64,000 nucleotides of DNA, from assembly GCA_964540475.1 (NCBI GenBank), contig CAZIMC010000001.1:9873-73872 (forward strand). The letters are read 5' to 3'. Every line of letters begins with the position of its first letter. Positions within the stretch are counted from its first letter, which is position 1. The stretch is from an uncultured Gammaproteobacteria bacterium. Lineage in GTDB: Bacteria > Patescibacteriota > Microgenomatia > UBA8517. Below the pieces are notes generated by a model. The model was not told where the DNA came from. It searched no databases and saw nothing but the letters and a program-made list of their open reading frames with translations. Of the stretch, positions 3,789 to 43,284 are shown one piece after another. The translations under genes and the position numbers were made by a program.

Positions 3789-4556
3789 TTAGCTGGCTAA
3801 AGCTTCATCAATGGTTTGCTTCAGGCTTTCAAGTGGATATGCTCCGGGAATTAGCCAAGCCTCACCTTTTTGATTTATCACAAAACTCCCCGGTGTACCC
3901 GTAATACCAGCAGTGCTCCCGCCCTGATACTGTTCATCAACAACACCCGCCATTCTTCCGCTTGAGACACATTCATCAAACCTGGCCTTGTTAACTCCTA
4001 CTGAAACGGCTGTGGCACTTATGTCCACCAAGTTAGCTTGCTGGTTTTCAAACACTTTGTCTACAAATTGCCAAAATGCATCGGCGCCCCCAACCTCTGC
4101 AACGCATTCTGAAGCCTCAGCCGCCGGTCTGGCTTTTGGATGAAGCATGTCCAATGGGTAGTGTCTGTAAACCCAGGCAACGTCTTGACCATAACTCTCA
4201 ACTGCCGCCTTTACTGTTGGGTGAAATTGCTGACAAAATGGGCACTCCAAGTCTGAATATTCAACAAAGAAAACTTTAGCATTCCTTGAGCCCCTAATGT
4301 GATCTTTCTCTGATATTGCAGGTATCTTTGCAGCCTCAGCTTCAGATAATTTACCCGCTGCAGGTGGAGCAGCTGCTGGGTCTACATTTGGCGCTTGATT
4401 GTTAGCCACCCTCGTCCCACCGCCTTCGAGATTGCGTACCTTCTCCCACAAAATACCAACTGTGAAAGCTAAGCCTATGGTTGCAACTAACAATATTGGC
4501 GCAACTTTCTCAAATATATTAACTGAGGTAGTTGTCTCTTTTTTTTCTTTTGCCAT
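3789..4556 (-). CDS. DsbA-family thiol:disulfide oxidoreductase, membrane anchored
   Basis: N-terminal TM helix and a thioredoxin fold with CPFC active site (EYSDLECPFCQQFHP). Confidence 0.7.
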   Translation of the reverse strand: MAKEKKETTTSVNIFEKVAPILLVATIGLAFTVGILWEKVRNLEGGGTRVANNQAPNVDPAAAPPAAGKLSEAEAAKIPAISEKDHIRGSRNAKVFFVEYSDLECPFCQQFHPTVKAAVESYGQDVAWVYRHYPLDMLHPKARPAAEASECVAEVGGADAFWQFVDKVFENQQANLVDISATAVSVGVNKARFDECVSSGRMAGVVDEQYQGGSTAGITGTPGSFVINQKGEAWLIPGAYPLESLKQTIDEALAS

Positions 4557-4598: not shown

Positions 4599-5645
4599 TC
4601 AATCGTTAAGTTTATTTTGCTCGATTAACCACTTCTCGATCTCCATGGCAGCTTCACATCCATACGCGGCTGCAGTTATCGCTTGTCTATAGTGGTGGTC
4701 GTGAACATCCCCGGCTACAAAAATACCAGGAATTGATGTTGAGGATTTGTATGGATGGTGGGCCCCCTCCACTTGTGTTTCATGCAAATCCCCCTCTTCG
4801 CCATGAACATGATCCGGATGAAGCAGTTCGGCGGGCTGCACCCCCCTGACAATATAACCCTTTGCATCTTTTGCCAAAAGTCCATCAAATATACTTGTAT
4901 TAGGCGTGTGGCCAATTGCAACAAATACTCCGTCAATTGCTACTTCCCAAGTTTTTTCCTCACCTTCTTTTGTCGATTTAAGAACAACCCCCGTGACTTT
5001 TTCACTACCCAAAATTTCTTTAACCACAGCATTCCAAATCACCCTAATTTTGGGGTTATCCATTACCCTTTCCTGCATAATCTTACTTGCCCTGAATTCA
5101 TTACGCCTGTGAACAATTGTTACCTCCCTTGCAAATTTTGCCAATGTCAAAGCCTCCTCCATTGCTGAGTCTCCACCACCTACCACAATTACAGTTTTGT
5201 CCTTGAAAAAAAATGCGTCACACGGGGCACAAGAAGACACACCCCTGCCAATTAGGTTTTGTTCATTGGGCACACCTAGCCATACAGTATCAGCCCCCGT
5301 TGCAATAAGCACTGTTTTAGCTTCATAAACTTCCTCATCTATACAAACTTTCTTGTTTACCCCTGCAAAGTCTACTTTAGTGGCATTTTTATCAATTACC
5401 TTAACACCAAACTTTTCTGTTTGGGTCCTCATATTTTGCATTAGGACTGGTCCCATAATTCCATCAGGAAAGCCGGGGAAATTCTCGACTAGTGTTGTAA
5501 GCATGAGCTGACCTCCCCATTTATCTCCTGCAATAAGAAGTGTCTGTAAATTAGCACGCGAAGTGTAAAGGCCGGCAGTTAACCCTGAGGGGCCTGATCC
5601 TATTATGATAACATCCCAAATTTTTCCGAGTAATTGTTTTTTCAT
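4599..5645 (-). CDS. trxB: thioredoxin-disulfide reductase
   Basis: FAD motif IIGSGPSGLTAG, redox CAPC motif, NAD(P) motif. The likely start is at MKKQLL. It carries a His-rich insertion near the C-terminus (see findings). Confidence 0.8.
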   Translation of the reverse strand: MKKQLLGKIWDVIIIGSGPSGLTAGLYTSRANLQTLLIAGDKWGGQLMLTTLVENFPGFPDGIMGPVLMQNMRTQTEKFGVKVIDKNATKVDFAGVNKKVCIDEEVYEAKTVLIATGADTVWLGVPNEQNLIGRGVSSCAPCDAFFFKDKTVIVVGGGDSAMEEALTLAKFAREVTIVHRRNEFRASKIMQERVMDNPKIRVIWNAVVKEILGSEKVTGVVLKSTKEGEEKTWEVAIDGVFVAIGHTPNTSIFDGLLAKDAKGYIVRGVQPAELLHPDHVHGEEGDLHETQVEGAHHPYKSSTSIPGIFVAGDVHDHHYRQAITAAAYGCEAAMEIEKWLIEQNKLND

Positions 5646-5718: not shown

Positions 5719-5982
5719 TCAAGCTGCTTGGGGGGGATTCTGTCCAGTGTCACCTGCTGGTGGAACCATAGGATCCACCGGTTGATCTGCAGCTGGTGCA
5801 GGAGGTGTCGCTGGCTGCTCGGATACTCCAGGAACCGGCGGGACTGATGGCTCTTGGGCTGGTTGTGCTGGTTCTGGCGTACCCGTGGGGGCTGGTTGCC
5901 CCATAGGATCTACCACTCCACCCATTGGAGGTGTTGATACTCCTGGGTTCATTGGATCTGTAGGATTATTTTGATCGTTCAT
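5719..5982 (-). CDS. Pro-rich low-complexity small protein, hypothetical (may not be expressed)
   Basis: An 87-aa ORF with three DPMxP repeats. It lies between trxA and trxB on the same strand. Confidence 0.3.
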   Translation of the reverse strand: MNDQNNPTDPMNPGVSTPPMGGVVDPMGQPAPTGTPEPAQPAQEPSVPPVPGVSEQPATPPAPAADQPVDPMVPPAGDTGQNPPQAA

Positions 5983-6006: not shown

Positions 6007-6336
6007 TTATATTCCTTTCTTAATCAACTCTTCAAATGCTTGTTTGCCCGCAAAGCCGACTTGCCTACCCACTTCAGTTCCGCCTTTAAACAAAATTGTT
6101 GTAGGGATAGACATTACTCCATATTTCATCGAGGTTTGTTGATTTTCGTCAACATTTAGTTTAACAATTGAAAGTTTGTCTTTATATTCTTCAGAGAGTT
6201 CTTCAAGTGATGGCTCTGCCATCTTGCAAGGTCCACACCAGGGCGCCCAAAAATCAACCAAAACAGGAAGACTCCCGTTTATAACCTTTGCTTCGAAGTC
6301 TGAGTCGGAAACGTGTGACGTGGCCATAACTTCCAC
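6007..6336 (-). CDS. trxA: thioredoxin
   Basis: WAPWCGPCKM active site; 109 aa. Confidence 0.85.
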   Translation of the reverse strand: MEVMATSHVSDSDFEAKVINGSLPVLVDFWAPWCGPCKMAEPSLEELSEEYKDKLSIVKLNVDENQQTSMKYGVMSIPTTILFKGGTEVGRQVGFAGKQAFEELIKKGI

Positions 6337-6389: not shown

Positions 6390-6599
6390 TTAGTGTAATA
6401 ATGTAATAACAATTGAAAGTACTACACTTATTATTATTGATGTTGCAATTGGAGCATAAAGGGTGAAATTTCCTCTTCTAATTAAAATATCTCCAGGGAG
6501 TTTCCCTAAAAACGGAATCCGGTCAGAAAAAGACAGTATTAGACCCAGTAACACTATTACTATTCCAAAAATCGTAATTAACCTACCAATATCCTGCAT
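6390..6599 (-). CDS. DUF2905-family small membrane protein
   Basis: A 69-aa protein with two TM helices and the LPGDILIRRGNF motif. Confidence 0.5.
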   Translation of the reverse strand: MQDIGRLITIFGIVIVLLGLILSFSDRIPFLGKLPGDILIRRGNFTLYAPIATSIIISVVLSIVITLLH

Positions 6600-6608
6600 G
6601 CGATGATT

Positions 6609-8864
6609 TTATACTTTTACAGACTTTAATCTCAAGGAATTAGTAACAACCGAGATTGAAGAAGCTGCCATAGCAAATGCTGCCAGTGCCGGGTTTAAAA
6701 GTAGCCCCGCGAACGGGTATAAAATCCCCATTGCTACGGGTATTAAAGTCACGTTATATCCAAATGCCCAGACCAGATTTTGCCTAATAATCTTAAGTGT
6801 TTTTCTGCTTAAATCTATCGCTGAAACAACTGTATTTAGGTTTTTATTAAGAAGAGTAATACTAGCCGATTCCATGGCTACGTCTGTCCCTGTTCCCATT
6901 GCAATTCCCACATCGGAGGCAGCCAATGCTGGGGCATCATTTATTCCGTCCCCAATAAACGCCACAACTTTCCCCTCCACCTCTTTTAACTGCCTGACTT
7001 TCAGTGCTTTCTCATCGGGTAAAACGTCTGCTAGTATGTTCTTGATTCCCAATCTCCTTGCAATAGCCATAGCAGTACGCTCGTTATCACCCGTGATCAT
7101 CCAAGTTTCAATTCCCTTTCTTTTCAAAGTGTCAATTGTTGTCATGGCACTTGGTTTTGGTTCATCCGCAATTGCCAACAAACCTAAAACCTGGCTTTGC
7201 GAAGCAAGATAGACAACAGTTTTCCCTTCGTTTTCAAGCTTTTGGACTTCATTTTCGGTCTCAAAAGTATCAATATTATTCTGTTTCATTAAGGCTCTGT
7301 TACCTAAATAAAACTCATTACCCTTGACCTCACCATATATTCCTTTGCCTGCAATCGCCTTAAACCCAACAACCTTGTCTGTCTTAACTCCCTCTTTTTC
7401 TGCTCGTTGCAGTATCGCCTCAGCCAAAGCATGCTCCGATCCTTGTTCTAGTGATGCCGCAATCTGGAGTAACTTTTGATTTTTGATTTTTGATTTTTGA
7501 TTTTCTAAAACATCTGTAACTACAGGTTTGCCTTGTGTTAAAGTACCTGTCTTATCAAACACAACAGTTTGTATTTTATTAGCAATCTCCAGGCTCTGCG
7601 CATCTTTAATTAGAATTCCCTTCTCAGCACCCCTTCCCACTCCAACCATAATTGCTGTTGGTGTAGCAAGCCCCAGAGCACACGGGCACGCAATAATAAG
7701 TACGGCAATTGTATTGACAAATGCAAAACTGAAAGCAGCTCCTGCCGGACCAGCAACATACCAAACAACAAAAGTTAAAACAGCCAATATCAAAACCACA
7801 GGGACGAAATAGGAGGAAACTGTGTCTGCTAATCGCTGAATGGGAGCTCTGGTGCTTTGGGCTTCACCAACCATCCTGACAATATTGGCAAGCACTGTAT
7901 CGCTTCCTACTTTTGTTGCTTTAAAAAGAAAGCTTCCCGATTTATTTATAGTTGCCCCAATCACATTTGCTCCAGCAATTTTATCAACGGGCATACTTTC
8001 ACCCGTAACCATTGATTCATCTATCGAACTACTGCCTTCGGTTATTACCCCATCCACGGGAATTTTCTCACCCGGCCTCACCCGAATAATGTCTCCCACA
8101 GCCACCTCTTCAATAGGTATATCAATCTCTTTTCCTTTCCGCACAACTCGTGCCGTTTTTGCGCCAAGGGCTAATAGTTTTTTAATTGCATCGCTTGTGT
8201 GAATCTTTGCCCGGGTTTCAAGATAACGGCCAAGAAGAATTAAAGTAATTATTACCGCCGCAGTTTCAAAATACATCTGCATTTGTATTCCCAAGGCATC
8301 AAATACTTGTGGAAATAAGACCCCAAGAGCGGAAAATCCATAAGCAGCAGAAGTTCCAAGCGCAACCAGGGTGTCCATGTTAGCCGAACGGTTCTTTAAG
8401 CCAGACCAGGTGGCCAAATAAAACTCTTTCCCTGCCCAAAACTGAACTATGCTTGCCATTACAAAAATTAGAAATGTATTTTGAAGAATATCAAAATCTA
8501 TTCCAACCATCTCTCCCATCGCCCCGACAACTATTAAAGTTGTCAGAATTGAGGAAACAATTACCTTAGTTTTTAAGTTTTGAAGTTCTTTTAATTTTAA
8601 TTCCTCCTTAATCTCTTCAGATGACTTTTGACTTTTGCCTTTTGAGTTTTGAGCTAATATCGGTTTATACCCCGCCGATTCAACTGCTTTAGCCAGTAAA
8701 TTACTGTCTACCTTATTACCAAGCTCAAGTGTTGCCTGCTCGCTTCCATAATTTACCGAGCAAGTTATAACCCCGGGAACTTTCTGTAAGTTTCTTTCTA
8801 TGAGCTTTGCACAAGATGCACAGTGCATGCCCACTATTGGAAAAGAAAGTTTATTTGTTTTCAT
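6609..8864 (-). CDS. copA: copper-translocating P1B-type ATPase
   Basis: N-terminal HMA domain (GMHCASC), CPC in TM6, [17 protein letters not shown]. The start is taken at MKTNK, overlapping the stop of the upstream cupredoxin gene by 4 nt. Confidence 0.9.
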
Positions 8865-9214
8865 TTGACCACAATCTTTCCGTGATACATATTCATTCCA
8901 CAATGAAATGGAAATTCTCCTGACTGCTCGGGATTAACTTCAATTTCTACGGTTTCATTTAAAGGAAGGTATTTTTTGATCTTGAAATCCGGTAAAACAA
9001 TCTCCTCTAAGCAAGAACTGGGGTCGCGTCTTTTGACCTTTAGTGTTACCTTCTCCCCTTTCTTAAGACTAATTACTGCAGGTTTATAACCACCTTCAAC
9101 GATAATATTTAGGTCTTCATCTGCCACCACTGCCTCCTGCCTCTTTCCAAAGAAAAACCAATATATAAAAATGATTAGGGAAATTCCTCCTGTTAAAACA
9201 AAAATTTTGTCCAT
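8861..9214 (-). CDS. cupredoxin-like copper-binding protein (membrane anchored)
   Basis: TM helix followed by a small beta-rich domain ending ...[16 protein letters not shown]. Co-operonic with csoR and copA. Confidence 0.5.
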
Positions 9215-9486
9215 TATTTTTTCTTAAAAAGTTCTACTATCTCTGAGACAAGGGTTTCGGATTTTGAACCATGAAGATCTTTCAAGACACAACTATGCAG
9301 GTGTCCATGAAGAATTAGTTCGTCAATTTTTCTAAGGGCTGACTGAACAGCACGCGATTGATGAATTATGTCCGGACAATATGCATCATCCGCTAGCATT
9401 TTTTCTATCTTTTTTAAGTGGCCCTGCACAATCTTAACTCTTCTAACGGCATCTGCTTTAAATAGATTATGATCGTGTTTGTTCAT
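9214..9486 (-). CDS. csoR: CsoR/RcnR-family copper-sensing transcriptional repressor
   Basis: A 90-aa all-helical protein with the C-H-C ligand pattern (YCPDIIHQ...HGHLHSC). Confidence 0.8.
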   Translation of the reverse strand: MNKHDHNLFKADAVRRVKIVQGHLKKIEKMLADDAYCPDIIHQSRAVQSALRKIDELILHGHLHSCVLKDLHGSKSETLVSEIVELFKKK

Positions 9487-9494
9487 GATTGTAT

Positions 9495-9511
9495 CCTACC
9501 CCGGGGGTAGG
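9495..9511. promoter_or_regulatory. candidate CsoR operator (GC-rich palindrome CCTACCCCGGGGGTAGG)
   Basis: A near-perfect inverted repeat in the divergent intergenic region between csoR and the plus-strand 9580 gene. It resembles the TACCC-N-GGGTA type CsoR operators described in Bacillus and Mycobacterium. Confidence 0.5.
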
Positions 9512-9579
9512 GTATTGTCAAGTATTAGAAAATATGTTACATTGTGTCTGCTTGACAAAAGATCTAAACTAATTCGGAT

Positions 9580-9957
9580 ATGAAAAACTTAACATTACCA
9601 TTAATTATTGTTGTTTCTTTGGGTATACTCATTGTTGGGGCGTTTGCATTAACAAAACAATCTAATTCCCCCACTCCACTCCCTTCTTATTTTGAATATT
9701 TCTGGGGAGACGGTTGCCCCAAATGCGAAACAGTTGAGGAGTTTTTAAACTCTTGGGAGAAAAAAGATGAAGTGCAAATTGTTAAAAAGGAAGTTTGGAA
9801 TAATCAGATTAATGCAAATCTTATGCTTGAACGGGCCCGATACTGCGGGATAAATCCCAATCAAGGTCTGGGGGTACCATTTCTGTTTACACCAGAGGGG
9901 CAATGTATAATTGGCGACGCTCCTATAATTGACTACTTAGAAGGCTTAAATTTATGA
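9580..9957 (+). CDS. membrane-anchored thioredoxin-like protein (CPKC)
   Basis: N-terminal TM helix and a thioredoxin-fold signature WGDGCPKC. Confidence 0.5.
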   Translation: MKNLTLPLIIVVSLGILIVGAFALTKQSNSPTPLPSYFEYFWGDGCPKCETVEEFLNSWEKKDEVQIVKKEVWNNQINANLMLERARYCGINPNQGLGVPFLFTPEGQCIIGDAPIIDYLEGLNL

Positions 9958-10535
9958 AAACCATCTGGAAGTTTATATTAACTGCAATCTTGGTACCTAC
10001 AACTCTCCTGTTCCCTGCTCCTGCACATGCAGTTTGCCCGGTTTGCACTATTGCGGTCGGCGCGGGACTTGGTCTATCAAGATGGCTCGGAATTGATGAC
10101 ACAATAACAGCAATTTGGATAGGTGGGCTTATTCTTTCAATGAGTTTCTGGTTTATTGACTGGTTGAACAAGCGATATTCCAAACAGATTGAAAAGGCTT
10201 TTAAGCCAGCAGTAAAAACACTCAACAAGTTTTCAGTTAATCAGCTATTCAGTCTAACGATTATAGTGTTTATGTACGCACTAACGTTAATACCACTTAA
10301 ATATACCGGTATTATCGGTCATCCCTTTAATACTATTGCAGGGATTGATAAAATACTCTTCGGAACCACTGTTGGCTCTGCCGGTTTTTTGTTTGCTAAA
10401 TGGCTTGATAATCAGGTACGCAAAAGGAAGGGAAAGCAGTTGTTTGTGTATCAAAAAGTGGTTTTTCCTTTAGCAACACTTATTATTATTAGTTTGGTCT
10501 TATATTATTACGGTGGTTACTTATATCGGTTGTGA
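9954..10535 (+). CDS. hypothetical polytopic membrane protein with a CPVC motif at the start of TM1
   Basis: Signal-like N-terminus then AVCPVCTIAVGAG and four or five TM helices. Translationally coupled to the upstream thioredoxin-like gene (ATGA overlap). Confidence 0.4.
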   Translation: MKTIWKFILTAILVPTTLLFPAPAHAVCPVCTIAVGAGLGLSRWLGIDDTITAIWIGGLILSMSFWFIDWLNKRYSKQIEKAFKPAVKTLNKFSVNQLFSLTIIVFMYALTLIPLKYTGIIGHPFNTIAGIDKILFGTTVGSAGFLFAKWLDNQVRKRKGKQLFVYQKVVFPLATLIIISLVLYYYGGYLYRL

Positions 10536-10550
10536 ATGAGGATATAGCGG

Positions 10551-10636
10551 ACTCGCGCGTTCGGATCACTGTTTGTGGGCGTGATCCCGACAAGTCGGGA
10601 GAGCAGGGACCCACAAAAGTGGACGCCAACGCGAGA
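10551..10636 (+). ncRNA. candidate structured RNA element (GC-rich bulged hairpin) in the 5' leader of the downstream gene
   Basis: The intergenic segment has far higher GC than its neighbours. Nested complementary pairs are visible: CTCGCGCGTT/AACGCGAG, CACTGTTTGTGGG/CCCACAAAAGTG, CCCGA/TCGGG with a CAAG loop, and an alternative GGATCAC/GTGATCC pairing. Confidence 0.25.
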
Positions 10637-10652
10637 GGCAGCCAGAAACATT

Positions 10653-11189
10653 ATGAAAATTAATAATTACAAATCACTATTAGCAAAAGTTGACGAAGTA
10701 ACAAAACAAAAAGGGCTGGATCTATCTTCCGGAGAAGATCTTTCAATCGGGATCATGAATCTTATTTCAATAGAAGAGCATCTATTTTTCACTTACAACA
10801 AAACTAAAGACAAAAAATATATCGATTTATTGAATGAAATCAGGCTAATAAGAACGCAGCTTCTAAAAGAAATTATTAAAGACTACGAGGGGGAGGTCTG
10901 GTGTATTAGTAAGCACTTACTGGCTGCTTCGATGAGAATAATGGAGGTGGGAACCAAAGAGCTTAAAAAGAATGAAAGGCAAAAGGCTATCAAACTTTTT
11001 GAAAAGTCGTACAAACTTTATTCGCTTTTCTGGGCAATAAACTTGGACGTAGTTAAACTGGGGAAAATAAAAAGAATGGATAATGACGTAAGTTTGGTCG
11101 ATGAAAACGGTACAGAAAAGGAAAACGTATCGGTGTTTGATAAACTAGGTTCACTGGTGCAAAAAGCGATAGATTGTTGCCGCGAATAA
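10653..11189 (+). CDS. hypothetical protein
   Basis: The ORF is called from 10575, but its first 26 codons translate the GC-rich structured element. MKINNYK is the more plausible start. Confidence 0.4.
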   Translation: MKINNYKSLLAKVDEVTKQKGLDLSSGEDLSIGIMNLISIEEHLFFTYNKTKDKKYIDLLNEIRLIRTQLLKEIIKDYEGEVWCISKHLLAASMRIMEVGTKELKKNERQKAIKLFEKSYKLYSLFWAINLDVVKLGKIKRMDNDVSLVDENGTEKENVSVFDKLGSLVQKAIDCCRE

Positions 11190-11190
11190 C

Positions 11191-12216
11191 ATGAATAATA
11201 TTTGGCTAGCATTAATTACAGGTCTAACAACGGGTGGAATTTCCTGCCTTGCCGTTCAGGGGGGGCTTTTGGCTTCCTCCGTTGCCCATCAAACAGAAAG
11301 TGGCTTAGCTGAGAAAGATAGAACTAAATATAAAACAGTTTTCTACTTTTTAGTGTCTAAGCTTGTTGCATACACACTTCTTGGAGCTCTTCTTGGTTTA
11401 GTTGGTTCGGCAATCAGCCTTTCTCCAAAATTTTTTGGGGCTATGCAAATTGCGGCAGGTCTTTTTATGCTCGCAACCGCCGCAAGGCTTTTAGATATTC
11501 ATCCAATATTCAGATACTTTGTTATTCAACCACCTTCATGGGCATATAAAATAATCAGAAAGTACGCAAAAGACGAATCTGTTTTTGCCCCGGCACTTTT
11601 GGGTTTTTCAACGGTTCTTATTCCCTGCGGAGTGACACAAGCGATGATGGTTTTGGCAATTGCCTCAGGCCACGCTCTGACGGGTGCAGCAATCATGTTT
11701 GCATTCACGCTCGGCACCTCACCAGTCTTTTTTGCGTTAGGCGCAACAGCTTTAGAGCTTCTGAAAAGAAAAAGCTTTAGAATTGCCGCCTCTGTCCTTA
11801 TTATCATACTGGGGTTAATGTCAGTTAATACCGGGCAGGTGCTTCGAGGCTCAAACCACACCCTGCAAAATTATTGGCTGGTTACAAGTAGTCTATTTTC
11901 TGAGAGTTCAGTACCACCCTCTGCTTTGGCCAAAATAGATTCAAGCGGCAAGCAAAGCGTTGTTATTAATGTTAAAAATAACGGCTACCAAACAACCACC
12001 ACTCAACTTAAGGTTGGTATTCCCGTTAAACTATCCCTAAGCACCAACAACACCCGGGGTTGCGCTCGTGCATTTACAATCCCCACATTTAACATCTCAA
12101 CTGTGCTGCCTGAAAGCGGGACAGAAATTGTTGAATTTACCCCAACTAAACCTGGAAGACTTGCCTATACCTGTTCAATGGGAATGTACACTGGTTCATT
12201 TGACGTTATCCAATGA
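11191..12216 (+). CDS. CcdA/DsbD-like two-cysteine transmembrane domain fused to a C-terminal cupredoxin-like domain
   Basis: The membrane half has a two-fold repeat with one Cys each (GGISCLAVQGG ... IPCGVTQAMM). The C-terminal part resembles the 8861 cupredoxin-like protein (...YTCSMGMYTGSFDVI). Confidence 0.4.
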   Translation: MNNIWLALITGLTTGGISCLAVQGGLLASSVAHQTESGLAEKDRTKYKTVFYFLVSKLVAYTLLGALLGLVGSAISLSPKFFGAMQIAAGLFMLATAARLLDIHPIFRYFVIQPPSWAYKIIRKYAKDESVFAPALLGFSTVLIPCGVTQAMMVLAIASGHALTGAAIMFAFTLGTSPVFFALGATALELLKRKSFRIAASVLIIILGLMSVNTGQVLRGSNHTLQNYWLVTSSLFSESSVPPSALAKIDSSGKQSVVINVKNNGYQTTTTQLKVGIPVKLSLSTNNTRGCARAFTIPTFNISTVLPESGTEIVEFTPTKPGRLAYTCSMGMYTGSFDVIQ

Positions 12217-12234
12217 ACCATAATCAAAGGTTAA

Positions 12235-12444
12235 ATGTCAAAAGCCAAAACTAAAACATACAAAATTATCGGGATGGACTGCGCCAGCTGCGCAATGCTT
12301 ATTGAAGGCGAGCTTCAGGACCTCGGAATAAAAGCCTCATGTAGCTACGCTAAGGAAACGCTTGATGTGGAGATTAATGATTCAAAACATGATGAAGATA
12401 AAATCCGGGACGTTGTTAAATCCATAGGCTACGACCTGCAGTAA
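12235..12444 (+). CDS. copZ: copper chaperone, HMA domain
   Basis: A 69-aa ferredoxin-like fold with the GMDCASC metal-binding motif. Confidence 0.8.
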   Translation: MSKAKTKTYKIIGMDCASCAMLIEGELQDLGIKASCSYAKETLDVEINDSKHDEDKIRDVVKSIGYDLQ

Positions 12445-12455
12445 ATCAAGATTGC

Positions 12456-13211
12456 TTGTCTCCTGTGCTAAAATTGTATGTGGCTACAAAACAGGAAATT
12501 GAACCAAATCGCGAAACCAGATCAGGCCGCAGTATTCACCAAGAAGCAGAGAAAACAAGAGAAAAAGGATTCTACTTGGAGGCTCTCCAGCTTGCCGATG
12601 AAGCTGCTCTTGCATATTTATTAGAAACAGATCTTCGTGGGTTTGCTGAAACTAGAGCTTCAAGATCTATTACTTTCCGCCATCTTTACAGAACAACTGG
12701 GGATATCGCATATCTTAAACAGGCCCGAAATGAGGCTACCGCAGCGGTTGACCTAGTTCTCAGCCAAAAGGATAAAAGTGCCCACGCAATACCGTTTTTT
12801 CATTTGGCTAATTGCCAAGAAGCTTTAGGTGAGCTTGAAGAAGCCGAACAATCTTACAGAAACGCAGTAGAGGTAATGGAAAAATTCCCACCACCCAGCC
12901 ACAATAGGCCAGCAGTTTTACTAGATTTCAAGGTCCATCTTTACACTGTTCAATATAAATTAGGCCAAACGATGGCGCTGGAATGGGCCGAACAAGCCCT
13001 AGATGAATTAAGACAAACAGATGAAGATCCTTTTAATAAAGCTGTTTGGCTTTCCGGTGGTCACATGCGTATTGCCGAAATGTTGTGGACTGACAACAAA
13101 CATGAAGCCGTTTCGCATTTACTGGAAGCTGAGCGAATAATTTATTCGAATCCCGAACTTACCCTTCGCAATGAGCAATTAAACGCCTTAAAAGATAAGC
13201 TTCAGGCCTAA
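12456..13211 (+). CDS. hypothetical all-helical (TPR-like) protein
   Basis: 251 aa, helical repeat character, no catalytic motif recognised. Confidence 0.35.
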   Translation: MSPVLKLYVATKQEIEPNRETRSGRSIHQEAEKTREKGFYLEALQLADEAALAYLLETDLRGFAETRASRSITFRHLYRTTGDIAYLKQARNEATAAVDLVLSQKDKSAHAIPFFHLANCQEALGELEEAEQSYRNAVEVMEKFPPPSHNRPAVLLDFKVHLYTVQYKLGQTMALEWAEQALDELRQTDEDPFNKAVWLSGGHMRIAEMLWTDNKHEAVSHLLEAERIIYSNPELTLRNEQLNALKDKLQA

Positions 13212-13219
13212 TTATAATA

Positions 13220-14744
13220 CTAAACCTTAGTTTGATATATTTTTGAATACTTTTCTTTTAAATAACTTAGGAAGTATTTGGGATTAAGTTTCTCCCCGGA
13301 CACCTGTACCACTAATTCGTTTGGCCAGTAGAGACTTCCGTGTTGGTGAATCTTGTCGCGGTACCAGGAAAGGATCGTTCCAAACTGTCCGGTTTTAATA
13401 AGTTCGCTTAAATTAAGCTCCTTATTAAGCGTATTGGTAAACTGCGCCGCATATAAAATTCCCTAAGGTATATGTTGGGAAATACCCCATTGGCCCGTGG
13501 CTCCAGTGAACATCTTGTAAAACTCCTTCTCTATCGGCTGCAGGAACCACTCCAAGATATTTCTTCATCTTTTCGCGCCATATTCCCGGCAAATCTTTTA
13601 CCTTAACTTTGTCGTTAACCAATGCTTCTTCTAGTTCAAATCTTAATGCAATATGAAGGTTATAAGTAACTTCGTCTGCTTCTGTTCGAATAAGTGAAGG
13701 GGTAACCCTATTAAAAAACCTAAAAAGCTTTTCATCCCCAGTATCTTTCAACTGCTCAGGGAAAAATGCATGTAAAACCGGTGATAAGTACTGCATAAAT
13801 TCAAGACTTCTTCCCATCTGGTTCTCCCAGAACCTGGATTGGCTTTCGTGAATTCCCAAAGAAACCCCCCCATCAAGAGGCGTATATTCATATTTTTCGT
13901 TAACCCCTTGGTCGTAAAGTGCATGCCCGCCTTCATGAAGCGCTATCATTATACTTTCGCGGAAATCGTTTGCTTTGTACCTATTGGTTATTCGCACATC
14001 GTGCCTGCCTAGTGAGCTGGTAAAAGGATGAGAAGATATATCCATCCTTCCCGCTTCTAAGTCATACCCCGTTTTTCGCAGAACAAAGAGTGAAATCTGC
14101 TTTTGCAATTCAACCGGGTAGTTTTTATCAACTGTTAAGTTGTCTAAACTTTTGTCTTTATATGTTTTACTTTTTAGAATTTTTTTAAGAATACTGGTTA
14201 ATTCCGGCTGGAGTTTTCCAAAGATTCTCCTTCCATTTGCTGCGGTTAAGCCCGGTTCGTACAAATCAAGCAATGCATCATAAGGGTTACTTTTGTAGCC
14301 AATGTGCTTAGCAACAATCTGGTTTAGAGAAACCATCTTAGTTAAATGCGGTTCAAATTCTTTGAAGTTATCCTGTTCTTTGGCCTTTTGCCATGCCATA
14401 AAGGCCATGGAGGAAGTTTTACTGAACTCGATAATTATATCCTGCGGAACTTTGTGATAAAACTTAGCCGAGTGGTTTAAATTTCTGACAATAGCGGCTT
14501 CTTCATTTCCTAGTCTCTCGATTTCTTTCGTCGCATCTTCGAGCAGTTTCCTAAAACCTTCATTGAGCCATTTATCAGATGCAAGTTTTGTTAAATACGC
14601 GGCCTGCTCTGCCCTTTCCTCGGAGGCTTTAGGTGGAAGATTAACACTTAAATCCCATCCTAATACAGATTCTATGCTCCCAATTAAAGCAATTTCTTTA
14701 TAATAATCAAGAAGATCACATACCGTTTTATTTTTTGCTTTCAT
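13220..14744 (-). pseudogene. M32 carboxypeptidase (Taq-like) with a single-base frameshift near the 3' end (true pseudogene or sequencing error)
   Basis: HEGGHALY zinc motif and the HESQSRFWENQ motif. The ORF stops at 13425 after ...YTLGNFICGAVYQYA. The neighbouring frame continues ...YAAQFTNTLNKELNLSELIKTGQFGTILSWYRDKIHQHGSLYWPNELVVQVSGEKLNPKYFLSYLKEKYSKIY down to a stop at 13220-13222. The shift is at the A4 run at 13454-13457. Confidence 0.7.
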
Positions 14745-38849: not shown

Positions 38850-38925
38850 GGGTCGGTAGCTCAACGGTTAGAGCACCAAGCTTATACCTTGGCGGTTGAG
38901 GGTTCGAATCCTTCCCGACCCACCA
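38850..38925 (+). tRNA. tRNA-Ile (anticodon UAU), with encoded CCA
   Basis: GGGTCGGTAGCTCAACGGTTAGAGCACCAAGCTTATACCTTGGCGGTTGAGGGTTCGAATCCTTCCCGACCCACCA. It has a perfect CCAAG/CTTGG anticodon stem, loop CTTATAC, and U33 immediately 5' of the TAT anticodon. Confidence 0.7.
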
Positions 38926-43003: not shown

Positions 43004-43193
43004 ATAAAGTGTTATAAAGCAAACGTTATAAAACTGCAAGGATACACATTTATATACAATGCAACCTTGACTTGCTTGAGAGATTGAGTGATTATGGATA
43101 TAATGCTCAATCACATTCCGAATCGACTTCAAAAAGAGATTCAAAAGTACTTTAAAATATCCTGACCTTTGTGAGGCCAACTAGTAGTTTTTG

Positions 43194-43284
43194 TGCCCCT
43201 GGATGGATTCGAACCATCAACAGAGACGCTTCGCGGCGTTAGGGTTCACAAAACCCCTGCTTTATCCATTTAAGCTACAGGGGC
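43194..43284 (-). tRNA. atypical 91-nt tRNA with a long extra arm; the cloverleaf parse gives anticodon UGU (Thr)
   Basis: Minus strand: GCCCCTG-TA-GCTT-AAATGGATA-AAGC-A-GGGGT-TTTGTGA-ACCCT-[AACGCCGCGAAGCGTCTCTGTT]-GATGG-TTCGAAT-CCATC-CAGGGGC-A. The acceptor, D, anticodon and T arms are canonical, but a 22-nt variable region is inconsistent with Thr. Confidence 0.45.

Follow-up and report, generated by a model that had tools for sequence, protein, structure and literature searches.

We analysed a stretch of 64,000 nucleotides (nt) of DNA from an uncultured bacterium (GenBank assembly GCA_964540475.1, contig CAZIMC010000001.1; hereafter the window) and focused on a copper-handling locus in which two blocks of genes diverge from one short spacer. 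The locus is a CsoR regulon of a Patescibacteria (Woesebacteria-like) bacterium. Its minus strand carries csoR, cupA and copA. Its plus strand carries copZ and, just before it, a gene for a membrane protein in which a six-helix DsbD_2 domain is fused to a CupA-type cupredoxin domain (hereafter the fusion). The G+C content is ~39-43% across the locus region, and all open reading frames (ORFs) named in a preliminary description of this DNA were found in place. The principal features are as follows; TM denotes transmembrane.

6609-8864, minus strand: copA, predicted P1B-1 Cu(I)-exporting ATPase; ATG 8864 is the likely start, and the mechanical ORF runs from TTG 8903
8861-9214, minus strand: cupA, predicted CupA-type Cu(I) chaperone of 117 residues with an N-terminal TM helix (residues 4-22) followed by KR
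9214-9486, minus strand: csoR, predicted Cu(I)-sensing repressor (PF02583)
9492-9514, no strand: CsoR-type operator, a GC-rich inverted repeat with 11-nt arms that are 91% complementary, between the divergent promoters
9521-9493, minus strand: promoter-like site matching the consensus (TTGACA 9521-9516, 17-nt spacer, TAGGAT 9498-9493)
9515-9543, plus strand: promoter-like site matching the consensus (TTGTCA 9515-9520, 17-nt spacer, TG-TACATT 9535-9543)
11191-12216, plus strand: DsbD_2-CupA fusion of 341 residues, with the six-TM domain at residues 1-220 and the CupA-type domain at residues 252-341
12235-12444, plus strand: copZ, predicted cytoplasmic HMA Cu(I) chaperone with GMDCASC and no signal peptide (HMA, E = 2.3e-9)

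On the minus strand, base 9214 is common to the stop codon of csoR and the start codon of cupA, and the stop codon of cupA (8863-8861) overlaps the likely ATG of copA (8864-8862), which opens MKTNKLSF. Since these stop and start codons overlap, csoR, cupA and copA are translationally coupled. The preliminary description of a coupled csoR-cupredoxin-copA operon behind a palindromic operator was thus borne out by the codon overlaps and the repeat at 9492-9514. The copA product matches the Pfam families E1-E2_ATPase (E = 1.2e-58), Hydrolase (1.2e-38) and HMA (1.7e-14), and its translation contains GMHCASC, CPC (in IACPCALG), YN (in GYNVT) and MxxSS (in MAASSIS), the motifs that define P1B-1 ATPases. 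With the ATPase core, the HMA domain and the TM motifs all present, CopA is predicted to be a P1B-1 Cu(I) ATPase. A gene for a DUF2905 membrane peptide (6390-6599, minus strand) lies 9 nt after copA on the same strand and is not conserved beside copA in relatives. The csoR product matches PF02583 with an E-value of 6e-21 (75.1 bits; cut-off, 22.8) and a RicR-like model with 1.6e-11. Its putative ligands C37, H62 and C66 follow the x-C-H-C spacing, for which the reference is Cys36/His61/Cys65 in the numbering of M. tuberculosis CsoR. The domain, the ligand signature and the operator assign this repressor to the Cu-sensing type, with a putative copper response. The cupA product matches Cupredoxin_1 (E = 1.8e-24, 86 bits), and its soluble domain is predicted to be cytoplasmic.

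A 94-nt spacer separates csoR from the divergent plus-strand genes. The operator palindrome, TATCCTACCCC/GGGGTAGGGTA at 9492-9514, overlaps the spacer and the -10 hexamer of the minus-strand promoter and abuts the -35 hexamer of the plus-strand promoter. The promoter scan as a whole was not enriched over shuffled sequences (17 sites vs 15.3), so that the two sites count by location alone. The csoR -10 hexamer TAGGAT ends 6 nt ahead of the csoR ATG, leaving no space for a ribosome-binding site (9484-9498, minus strand), and the csoR mRNA is therefore probably leaderless. An equally tight spacing between operator and start codon was found for csoR in most relatives. Operators in relatives were assessed by inspecting the regions upstream of csoR, since a rigid regular expression missed most sites. 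In related loci, almost all csoR genes have an ATCCCCC-N3-5-GGGGGAT repeat in front of them, and in divergent relatives the same short spacer with the operator also precedes the fusion gene. A pattern search of this region of the window gave no second operator-like site. Since one operator lies over one promoter and against the other, copper should de-repress transcription in both directions. The earlier view of two divergent blocks under a shared CsoR operator is supported by the position of the operator at the plus-strand -35 hexamer and by its retention in relatives.

The fusion is composed of two recognizable domains. Residues 7-209 match DsbD_2 (PF13386) with an E-value of 2.8e-28 (99.6 bits against a cut-off of 24.9, covering profile positions 2-198 of 199), and residues 251-335 match Cupredoxin_1 (E = 2.5e-10). 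The score against PF02683, the CcdA/DsbD family, is 21 bits and lies under the cut-off of 27.1; some relatives exceed this cut-off, for example P0243 at 34.4 bits. In the predicted structure (pLDDT 87.5, pTM 0.74), six long helices are followed by a linker helix and a beta domain, and TM4 is broken at Pro145-Cys146. Cys19 is located in the middle of TM1 in the context GISCLAVQ, and Cys146 in the context IPCGVTQ. The CcdA/DsbD motif is defined as Pro-Cys-x-x-Pro; neither Cys of the fusion has this context, and Pro precedes Cys146 only. There is also no match to TauE/SafE in Pfam (PF01925) or NCBIfam at E up to 0.1. On these scores and motif contexts, the fusion is classified as not a TauE/SafE member and not a canonical CcdA/DsbD protein. 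It had been described at first as a CcdA/DsbD-like permease with two Cys residues: the two Cys are confirmed, in TM1 and TM4, and the family is PF13386.

Conservation was assessed in 150 cluster representatives by counting the sequences with a residue at each site. C19 (133/133) and P145-C146 (148/148) are invariant. The predicted Cu(I) ligands of the outer domain are Cys291 (conserved in 139/140), Cys328 (139/140), Met330 (129/139) and Met332 (132/138). In the membrane domain, Pro-Cys-Gly is also invariant, and one cytoplasmic loop is highly conserved. A sister subfamily with the same architecture and gene context has HCxxMCG in TM1 and MPCGPLQ in TM4. The TM domain of one such protein (P0243) matches the model of the organoarsenical efflux permease ArsG with an E-value of 4e-8, a model that the fusion itself does not reach in the NCBIfam search. 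Relatives also show weak matches to the DsbD model NF001419 (E ~1e-6), and in some of them the outer tails or linkers are rich in Cys, as in GGGGCCGG and CGGGGGGCGCG.

The fusion is predicted to have six helices with both termini outside the cell. In 78 sequences, the mean number of Lys and Arg residues is 3.0, 5.7 and 2.9 in loops 1, 3 and 5, and 0, 0.6 and 0.1 in the N-terminus and loops 2 and 4. Relatives exist that consist of an HMA domain, one extra TM helix (TM0), the DsbD_2 domain and one to three cupredoxins. Since an N-terminal HMA domain without a signal peptide is cytoplasmic, the extra helix would exit the cell and the six further helices would end outside. A third type of evidence comes from the relative P0207, in which a cupredoxin, a TM helix, a lysine-rich segment (~50 residues) in a loop of ~110 residues, a TM helix and a second cupredoxin follow each other. 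Because the loop charge, the HMA fusions and P0207 agree independently, we place the cupredoxin domain outside the cell, as had been proposed earlier. A cytoplasmic location of the fused cupredoxin, in which it would pair with CupA, was rejected, as it conflicts with the same three lines.

A Cys in TM1, a Pro-Cys in TM4 and six TM helices with the N- and C-termini outside are exactly the arrangement of CcdA/DsbD, which argues for an explanation based on electrons. The DsbD_2 domain would then be CcdA-like: cytoplasmic thioredoxin would reduce Cys19/Cys146, and these would re-reduce Cys291-Cys328 of the outer domain, either directly or through a surface thioredoxin-like protein, such as TrxL125 (see below) or the DsbA-like neighbours. 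As a result, the outer domain would keep binding Cu(I), or would reduce Cu(II), in an oxidising environment. Scs-CueP and CcdA-TlpA-ScoI/CoxB are precedents for copper-linked thiol relays, and the fusion would condense ScsB-ScsC-CueP or CcdA-TlpA-ScoI/CoxB into a single polypeptide. The presence of PDB 4TXV, a mixed disulfide of TlpA and CoxB, among the fold matches and the weak matches to DsbD and PF02683 fit with such a role. On the other hand, the score for PF13386 is far above that for PF02683, the sister subfamily carries a metal-type HCxxMCG motif, and the acceptor would have a cupredoxin fold and not a thioredoxin fold. We regard transfer of electrons as the leading alternative to the copper relay proposed below, though on balance less likely, and return to it with the gene neighbourhood.

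Both cupredoxin domains of the window are homologous to CupA of Streptococcus pneumoniae. The 117-residue protein matches CupA (PDB 4F2E/2MRY) with an E-value of 8.8e-24, with C...CGMNM aligned, and the cupredoxin-type metal-binding domain of pneumococcal CopA (4F2F) with 2e-9. The C-terminal 90 residues of the fusion match CupA with 6.6e-6 and 4F2F with 2.2e-5 as a single sequence, and with 9.8e-14 and 2.2e-12, respectively, as a family profile. CupA has a binuclear Cu(I) site formed by Cys74, Cys111, Met113 and Met115 (PMC7558416, PMC5646241), and these ligands align in both window proteins. Since both show CupA homology and C...CxMxM ligands, they are predicted to be Cu(I)-chaperone domains with a Cys2Met2 site and not blue-copper electron carriers, which corrects the preliminary description. 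In the 117-residue protein, the homology, the ligands and the membrane anchor of CupA are all present, and the cognate CopA has no cupredoxin-type N-terminus, with an HMA domain there instead (Pfam). CupA acts in the cytoplasm (review PMC7558416); the C-terminus of the fusion has the fold and the ligands of CupA but, unlike it, is predicted to lie outside the cell. The same review states that CupA is limited to a few streptococci (PMC7558416). This is contradicted by the present homology searches, in which predicted CupA-type domains are widespread.

The fusion had been called unusual. It does exist as described, but it is not unusual: of 8000 candidates in a word-indexed search, 6713 were homologues at E up to 1e-3, and the best 120 all have the same two-domain architecture, with 55-64% identity, in Patescibacteria/Woesebacteria. 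Among 50%-identity representatives, searched exhaustively, 5116 clusters matched at E up to 1e-3 and 386 matched at 1e-30. When one genome per species was scanned, the genomes of at least 577 species proved to encode the fusion; these species belong to Patescibacteria and Chloroflexota and include Woese-, Gottesman-, Levy-, Collier-, Davies- and Blackburn-bacteria, many Anaerolineae, and Dormibacterota. Cultured Chloroflexota are represented by Longilinea arvoryzae KOME-1 (locus L042), which has the fusion followed by copZ. Cultured Leptolinea sp. HRD-7 (L039) has the fusion with no cop gene within the 10-kb flanks. The window fusion is an ordinary member of this family, and the sole local peculiarity is an inserted cassette of three genes, described below.

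To describe the gene neighbourhood, ORFs were called in the 81 best genome loci and searched with the window proteins. Within 6 kb of the fusion we found copZ in 68/81 loci, a Cu-ATPase gene in 65/81, csoR in 43/81 and standalone cupA in 23/81. At least one cop gene was within 6 kb in 77/81 loci, with none in 4/81; a gene placed at random in a genome of 1-4 Mb would be that close to copA in ~1% of cases or less. The copZ gene is immediately downstream of the fusion on the same strand in 57/81 loci, copA is immediately upstream on the same strand in 24/81, and csoR is divergent within 300 nt in 21/81. In the nearest relative on a long contig, csoR-cupA-copA lie on one strand and fusion-copZ on the other, with nothing more. 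The conserved core is five genes (csoR, cupA, copA, fusion and copZ), in which the tightest pair is the fusion and copZ. The expectation that the plus-strand genes are conserved together with cop genes held for the fusion and copZ; the three cassette genes are enriched near cop loci and also occur without them, and a TPR-like gene downstream is not conserved.

The order copA, fusion, copZ on one strand is frequent, with gaps of 4-70 nt, and this constant neighbourhood of copA, together with the conserved outer Cu(I) site, is what would be expected if the outer CupA-type domain caught Cu(I) leaving CopA, like CusF/CopL-type proteins. The six-helix domain would then be an anchor or a docking module, with structural or regulatory cysteines. 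However, two invariant Cys residues in the middle of the membrane, the Pro-Cys-Gly and the conserved loop exceed the needs of an anchor, for which CupA uses a single helix, and the fusion-copZ pair is kept in loci without copA within 6 kb. A role as a mere surface acceptor thus seems improbable.

In the databases, the homologues are named "sulfite exporter TauE/SafE family protein" or "hypothetical", and UniRef lists them as "UreH-like transmembrane domain-containing". If these names were right, the protein would serve to export sulfite or organosulfonates (TauE/SafE) or as a nickel permease (UreH), and its position near cop genes would be coincidental. Apart from the names, which are its basis, this explanation has to contend with the lack of a TauE match noted above, the predicted Cu(I)-binding CupA-type domain and the cop genes in nearly all loci, and no urease, hydrogenase or sulfonate genes were seen beside the fusion in the loci inspected. 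We consider it very improbable.

HMA domains and thiol-redox genes both recur around the family. A single HMA-fused protein used as query gave no match in a first metagenome scan; the HMA-fused form was found in at least 572 metagenome stretches. Among the best 80 of these metagenome loci, a P-type ATPase gene is present in 63/80 and directly downstream on the same strand in 48/80, and an N-terminal CxxC is present in 69/80. A thioredoxin gene (trx) is within 6 kb of the fusion in 19/81 genome loci, in at least 2 different arrangements, and a DsbA-like gene adjoins the fusion in 7/81 genome loci and 7/80 metagenome loci. In one Patescibacteria locus (L056, 9152-12331, plus strand), the genes follow each other in the order DsbA-like, fusion, copZ, DsbB-like (142 residues, PCVLC) and DsbA-like. 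These thiol-redox neighbours favour the transfer of electrons, which nevertheless leaves no role for the fused cytoplasmic HMA domain or for the very tight linkage to copZ.

A literature search gave no description of a DsbD_2-cupredoxin family, nothing for PF13386, and nothing for TauE with copper, CopZ or CopA. A DsbD_2/UreH-like domain with an outward CupA-type domain and an HMA partner in CsoR-controlled cop operons is therefore undescribed in the literature searched, as the preliminary description had supposed for the combination of genes. All constituent domain families are already known.

Between the operator and the fusion gene, the window contains three further genes, which we treat as one cassette.

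9580-9957, plus strand: TrxL125, 125 residues, N-terminal TM helix and CPKC; first gene of the cassette
9954-10535, plus strand: CPVC193, 193 residues with a signal peptide and four TM helices; CPVC lies at the N-terminal end of a short helix; second gene
10653-11189, plus strand: hyp178, 178 residues, soluble, WCISKH and a C-terminal DCC(K/R)E; third gene

The plus-strand genes are tightly packed, with gaps of -4, 117, 1, 18 and 11 nt. TrxL125 matches Pfam Glrx-like with low significance (E = 0.0066), and its family profile against the PDB gives StoA (E = 0.002, weak), followed by glutaredoxin, DsbA and ResA. The CxxC and two further Cys residues are invariant in 10 homologues. StoA and ResA depend on CcdA in B. 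subtilis. Since TrxL125 is membrane-anchored, has four conserved Cys residues and is nearest to these CcdA-dependent proteins, its putative thioredoxin domain is probably extracytoplasmic. It cannot then be a cytoplasmic donor upstream of a CcdA-like protein, as had been suggested at first, and would at most be an acceptor. This resemblance to StoA/ResA speaks for a transfer of electrons through the fusion, against which stands the presence of TrxL125 in just 6/81 loci.

CPVC193 shows no DsbB or VKOR fold or family match; the VKOR check proposed for this protein was negative, and a DsbB/VKOR identity was rejected. Membership in RseC/MucC was also rejected, since the match spans TM helices only. 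The hyp178 ORF is listed from GTG 10575, and ATG 10653 is the most likely start judged by homologues. At least 7950 homologues with 70-84% identity, specific to Patescibacteria and all named "hypothetical", were found. The mean column identity is 65%, WCISKH and DCC(K/R)E are invariant, and hyp178 has no Pfam domain and no PDB relative. The CPVC membrane protein is nearly always encoded 5' of hyp178 (L009, L084, L086, L088, L170-L172).

The cassette genes are present in 6-11/81 of the fusion-centred loci. The contexts of the cassette were also examined in look-ups centred on the cassette itself (n = 6), with the following result.

L084/85 and L170: cassette beside sigma-70 and primase genes; not cop-linked
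L088/89: cassette beside trx, trxB and DsbA genes, with no cop gene within 6 kb; not cop-linked
L086/87: cassette downstream of fusion-copZ; cop-linked
L171: CPVC-hyp178 pair divergent from a heavy-metal ATPase gene, followed by DsbB-DsbA; cop-linked
L172: trio and csoR diverge from a shared 115-nt spacer that contains TATCCCCCCCAGGGGGATA; cop-linked

The linkage to cop genes in 3/6 look-ups is far above chance and is not obligatory. TrxL125, CPVC193 and hyp178 are a separate accessory cassette of Woesebacteria and not part of one conserved plus-strand system; the proposal of such a single system did not hold, since the trio also occurs without nearby cop genes. In the window, the cassette sits between the only CsoR operator and the fusion gene. 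Because no second operator-like site was found, the cassette here is probably co-transcribed and copper-induced. Its likely role is the handling of surface thiols or copper.

A CPVC193 paralogue that has HCPLC was observed inside csoR...cupA-copA operons of several Woesebacteria, between csoR and cupA-copA (L086 2782-3821, minus strand; L172 1536-3719, minus strand; L005, L009, L012, L016, L022 and L023). Its neighbours are genes for a DUF1573 Ig-like protein, a 390-residue rhodanese, and YHS, DUF305 and DUF5676 proteins. These csoR operons represent a CsoR regulon much larger than the classical one.

We propose, with a probability of roughly 45%, that the fusion is a thiol relay through which Cu(I) from CopZ would reach the outer CupA-type site by way of Cys19/Cys146, under the control of CsoR. 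Cytoplasmic CopZ would pass its Cu(I) to the buried Cys pair through ligand exchange, and the ion would then move on to the outer Cys2Met2 site. In the relatives with a fused HMA domain, the donor would be that domain, tethered through the one extra helix. Outside the cell, copper may be held, released or oxidised, and the outcome would be an ATP-independent route of copper efflux or sequestration beside CopA. Such a protein would be built like MerP-MerT, yet with chaperone domains on both faces.

Five features argue for metal over electrons. First, HMA and not thioredoxin is the domain fused to or encoded beside the fusion. Second, the membrane domain scores as PF13386 and not as PF02683. Third, UniRef calls this domain UreH-like, the equation of UreH with PF13386 resting on that name. 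Fourth, the sister subfamily carries HCxxMCG and matches the ArsG model. Fifth, the tails or linkers that several relatives have on the outside are rich in Cys. MerT and MerP are a precedent for the movement of thiophilic metals by intramembrane Cys pairs with HMA partners, and the HMA fusions suggest metal transfer at least as much as electron transfer. Somewhat more tentatively, the fusion with CopZ or a tethered HMA domain may represent a new class of copper translocator in which an electron-transfer fold was recruited for metal, and the trio may form a further surface module for thiols and copper.

Several points weigh against the passage of copper through the fusion. The arrangement of Cys residues and helices described above is that of CcdA/DsbD, relatives show weak matches to NF001419 and PF02683, and the additional His, Met and Cys residues found in the HCxxMCG subfamily are missing from the window subfamily. 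Genes for thioredoxin, thioredoxin reductase, DsbA-like proteins and DsbB repeatedly adjoin the locus and its relatives. Since copZ beside copA is normal in any cop operon, adjacency alone is no proof of a partnership between CopZ and the fusion, and the outward direction follows from the CsoR control only. Transport and copper binding are putative for all members of the family. In CupA itself, the Cys pair is redox-active: C74 and C111 reduce Cu(II) in vitro and need a reductant that is as yet unidentified (PMC5646241). This last point also favours the transfer of electrons, which would provide such a reductant for the outer domain.

In the current view, bacteria export copper by means of P1B ATPases, RND systems and a few chaperones. 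A large family, present in hundreds of species of Patescibacteria and Chloroflexota and located in cop operons under CsoR, may be a missing component of copper homeostasis. The fusion could translocate Cu(I) in a new way, or it could serve a copper site at the surface as a built-in supply of reductant. Either answer would shed light on the management of copper in energy-poor, monoderm-like Candidate Phyla Radiation (CPR) bacteria and on the diversification of the CcdA/DsbD fold, and the homologues in cultured Chloroflexota make the question directly testable. CupA does not appear to be a streptococcal oddity, as CupA-type domains are widespread and one of them is predicted here to face outward. 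The result also corrects a systematic mis-annotation in the databases as a sulfite exporter.

The remaining features in and around the locus are listed below.

10547-10643, plus strand: GC-rich hairpin between the CPVC gene and hyp178, within their 117-nt spacer
12456-13211, plus strand: TPR-like ORF, all TPR matches below the Pfam cut-offs; may be co-transcribed
3789-4556, minus strand: DsbA-like gene (Pfam), a context gene
4599-5645, minus strand: thioredoxin reductase gene (Pfam), a context gene
6007-6336, minus strand: thioredoxin gene (Pfam), a context gene

The hairpin has a minimum free energy of -45.7 kcal/mol (z -3.8) and ~60% G+C in a region of 39% G+C, with no T-run after it. Rfam gave no match, either for 9000-13500 with E up to 1 or for the whole window with the gathering scores, alignment to the equivalent spacers of L086 and L088 shows no conservation, and pattern searches of the window and 172 loci gave one copy only. 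A conserved leader or riboswitch was rejected on these grounds. The GC-rich structured leader of the preliminary description is thus real as a fold, and it is lineage-specific. The TPR-like ORF is likewise present, but it is below every Pfam cut-off and has no homologue in any related locus searched; it was rejected as a member of the system and is considered incidental.

The DsbA-like, trxB and trx genes are recurrent neighbours of cop modules in relatives. The thioredoxin reductase (4599-5645, minus strand) has a His-rich insertion of ~30 residues, AELLHPDHVHGEEGDLHETQVEGAHHPYK, ahead of GxFxAGD near the C-terminus. None of the 13 aligned relatives has this insertion, a possible metal-binding loop. 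An 87-residue Pro/Ala-rich ORF of low complexity without a Pfam match (5719-5982, minus strand) lies between trxB and trx, and a short gene occupies the trxB-trx position also in relatives (L088 3778-4218, L171 1511-1807). Elsewhere in the window, we observed a tRNA-Ile gene with a UAU anticodon, which is uncommon in bacteria (38850-38925, plus strand), and an unusually long tRNA-Thr(UGU) of 92 nt (43193-43284, minus strand).

Compared with known systems, the fusion belongs to the same homologous superfamily as CcdA, DsbD and ScsB, including those of Scs-CueP and CcdA-TlpA-ScoI/CoxB. It shares with them six helices with both termini outside, a Cys in TM1, a Pro-Cys in TM4, an extracytoplasmic Cys-containing partner, and ties to copper tolerance and to trx and Dsb genes. 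It differs from them in belonging to PF13386, with a PF02683 score below the cut-off, in the attached domain, which is a predicted Cu(I)-binding cupredoxin and not a thioredoxin or Ig fold, and in the fused or adjacent cytoplasmic partner, which is HMA and not thioredoxin.

The MerT/MerP relay for mercury uptake and MerTP fusions likewise combine a small membrane protein with intramembrane Cys residues, which passes a thiophilic metal by ligand exchange, as proposed here, and an HMA partner. The copZ product matches CopZ and MerTP models, and CopZ and the fused HMA domains match the MerTP and MerP models. The membrane part of MerT/MerP has no homology to the fusion, however, and in the fusion family the HMA domain is cytoplasmic, the cupredoxin is outside, the metal would be copper and the expected direction is outward. 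The UreH nickel permeases and ArsG belong to the same or a closely related membrane-domain family, as judged by the UniRef name and the ArsG match of P0243. These permeases make clear that a protein of this fold can transport metal or metalloid species (PMC2667541, PMC9144182), and ArsG is listed among efflux transporters (PMC9144182). In contrast to the fusion, they are not described as joined to CupA or HMA domains; the substrate would differ, and the fusion itself is below the ArsG model.

The csoR-copZ-copA operon of B. subtilis and the cso operon of M. tuberculosis resemble the locus in the C-H-C type of CsoR, the P1B-1 ATPase, the HMA chaperone, and the GC-rich inverted-repeat operator overlapping the promoter. 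The window differs from both in its divergence from a second operon and in the presence of CupA, the DsbD_2-CupA fusion and the accessory trio. The closest likeness in gene order is to copY-cupA-copA of S. pneumoniae, where a repressor, a membrane-anchored CupA and CopA follow each other as they do here, and the homology to CupA (4F2E) extends to both window proteins. The repressor of the window is CsoR and not CopY, its CopA has an HMA N-terminus in place of the cupredoxin N-terminus of pneumococcal CopA, and a classical CopZ is also present. While pneumococcal CupA is cytoplasmic, the second CupA-type domain of the window is carried by a six-helix membrane protein and is predicted to face outward.

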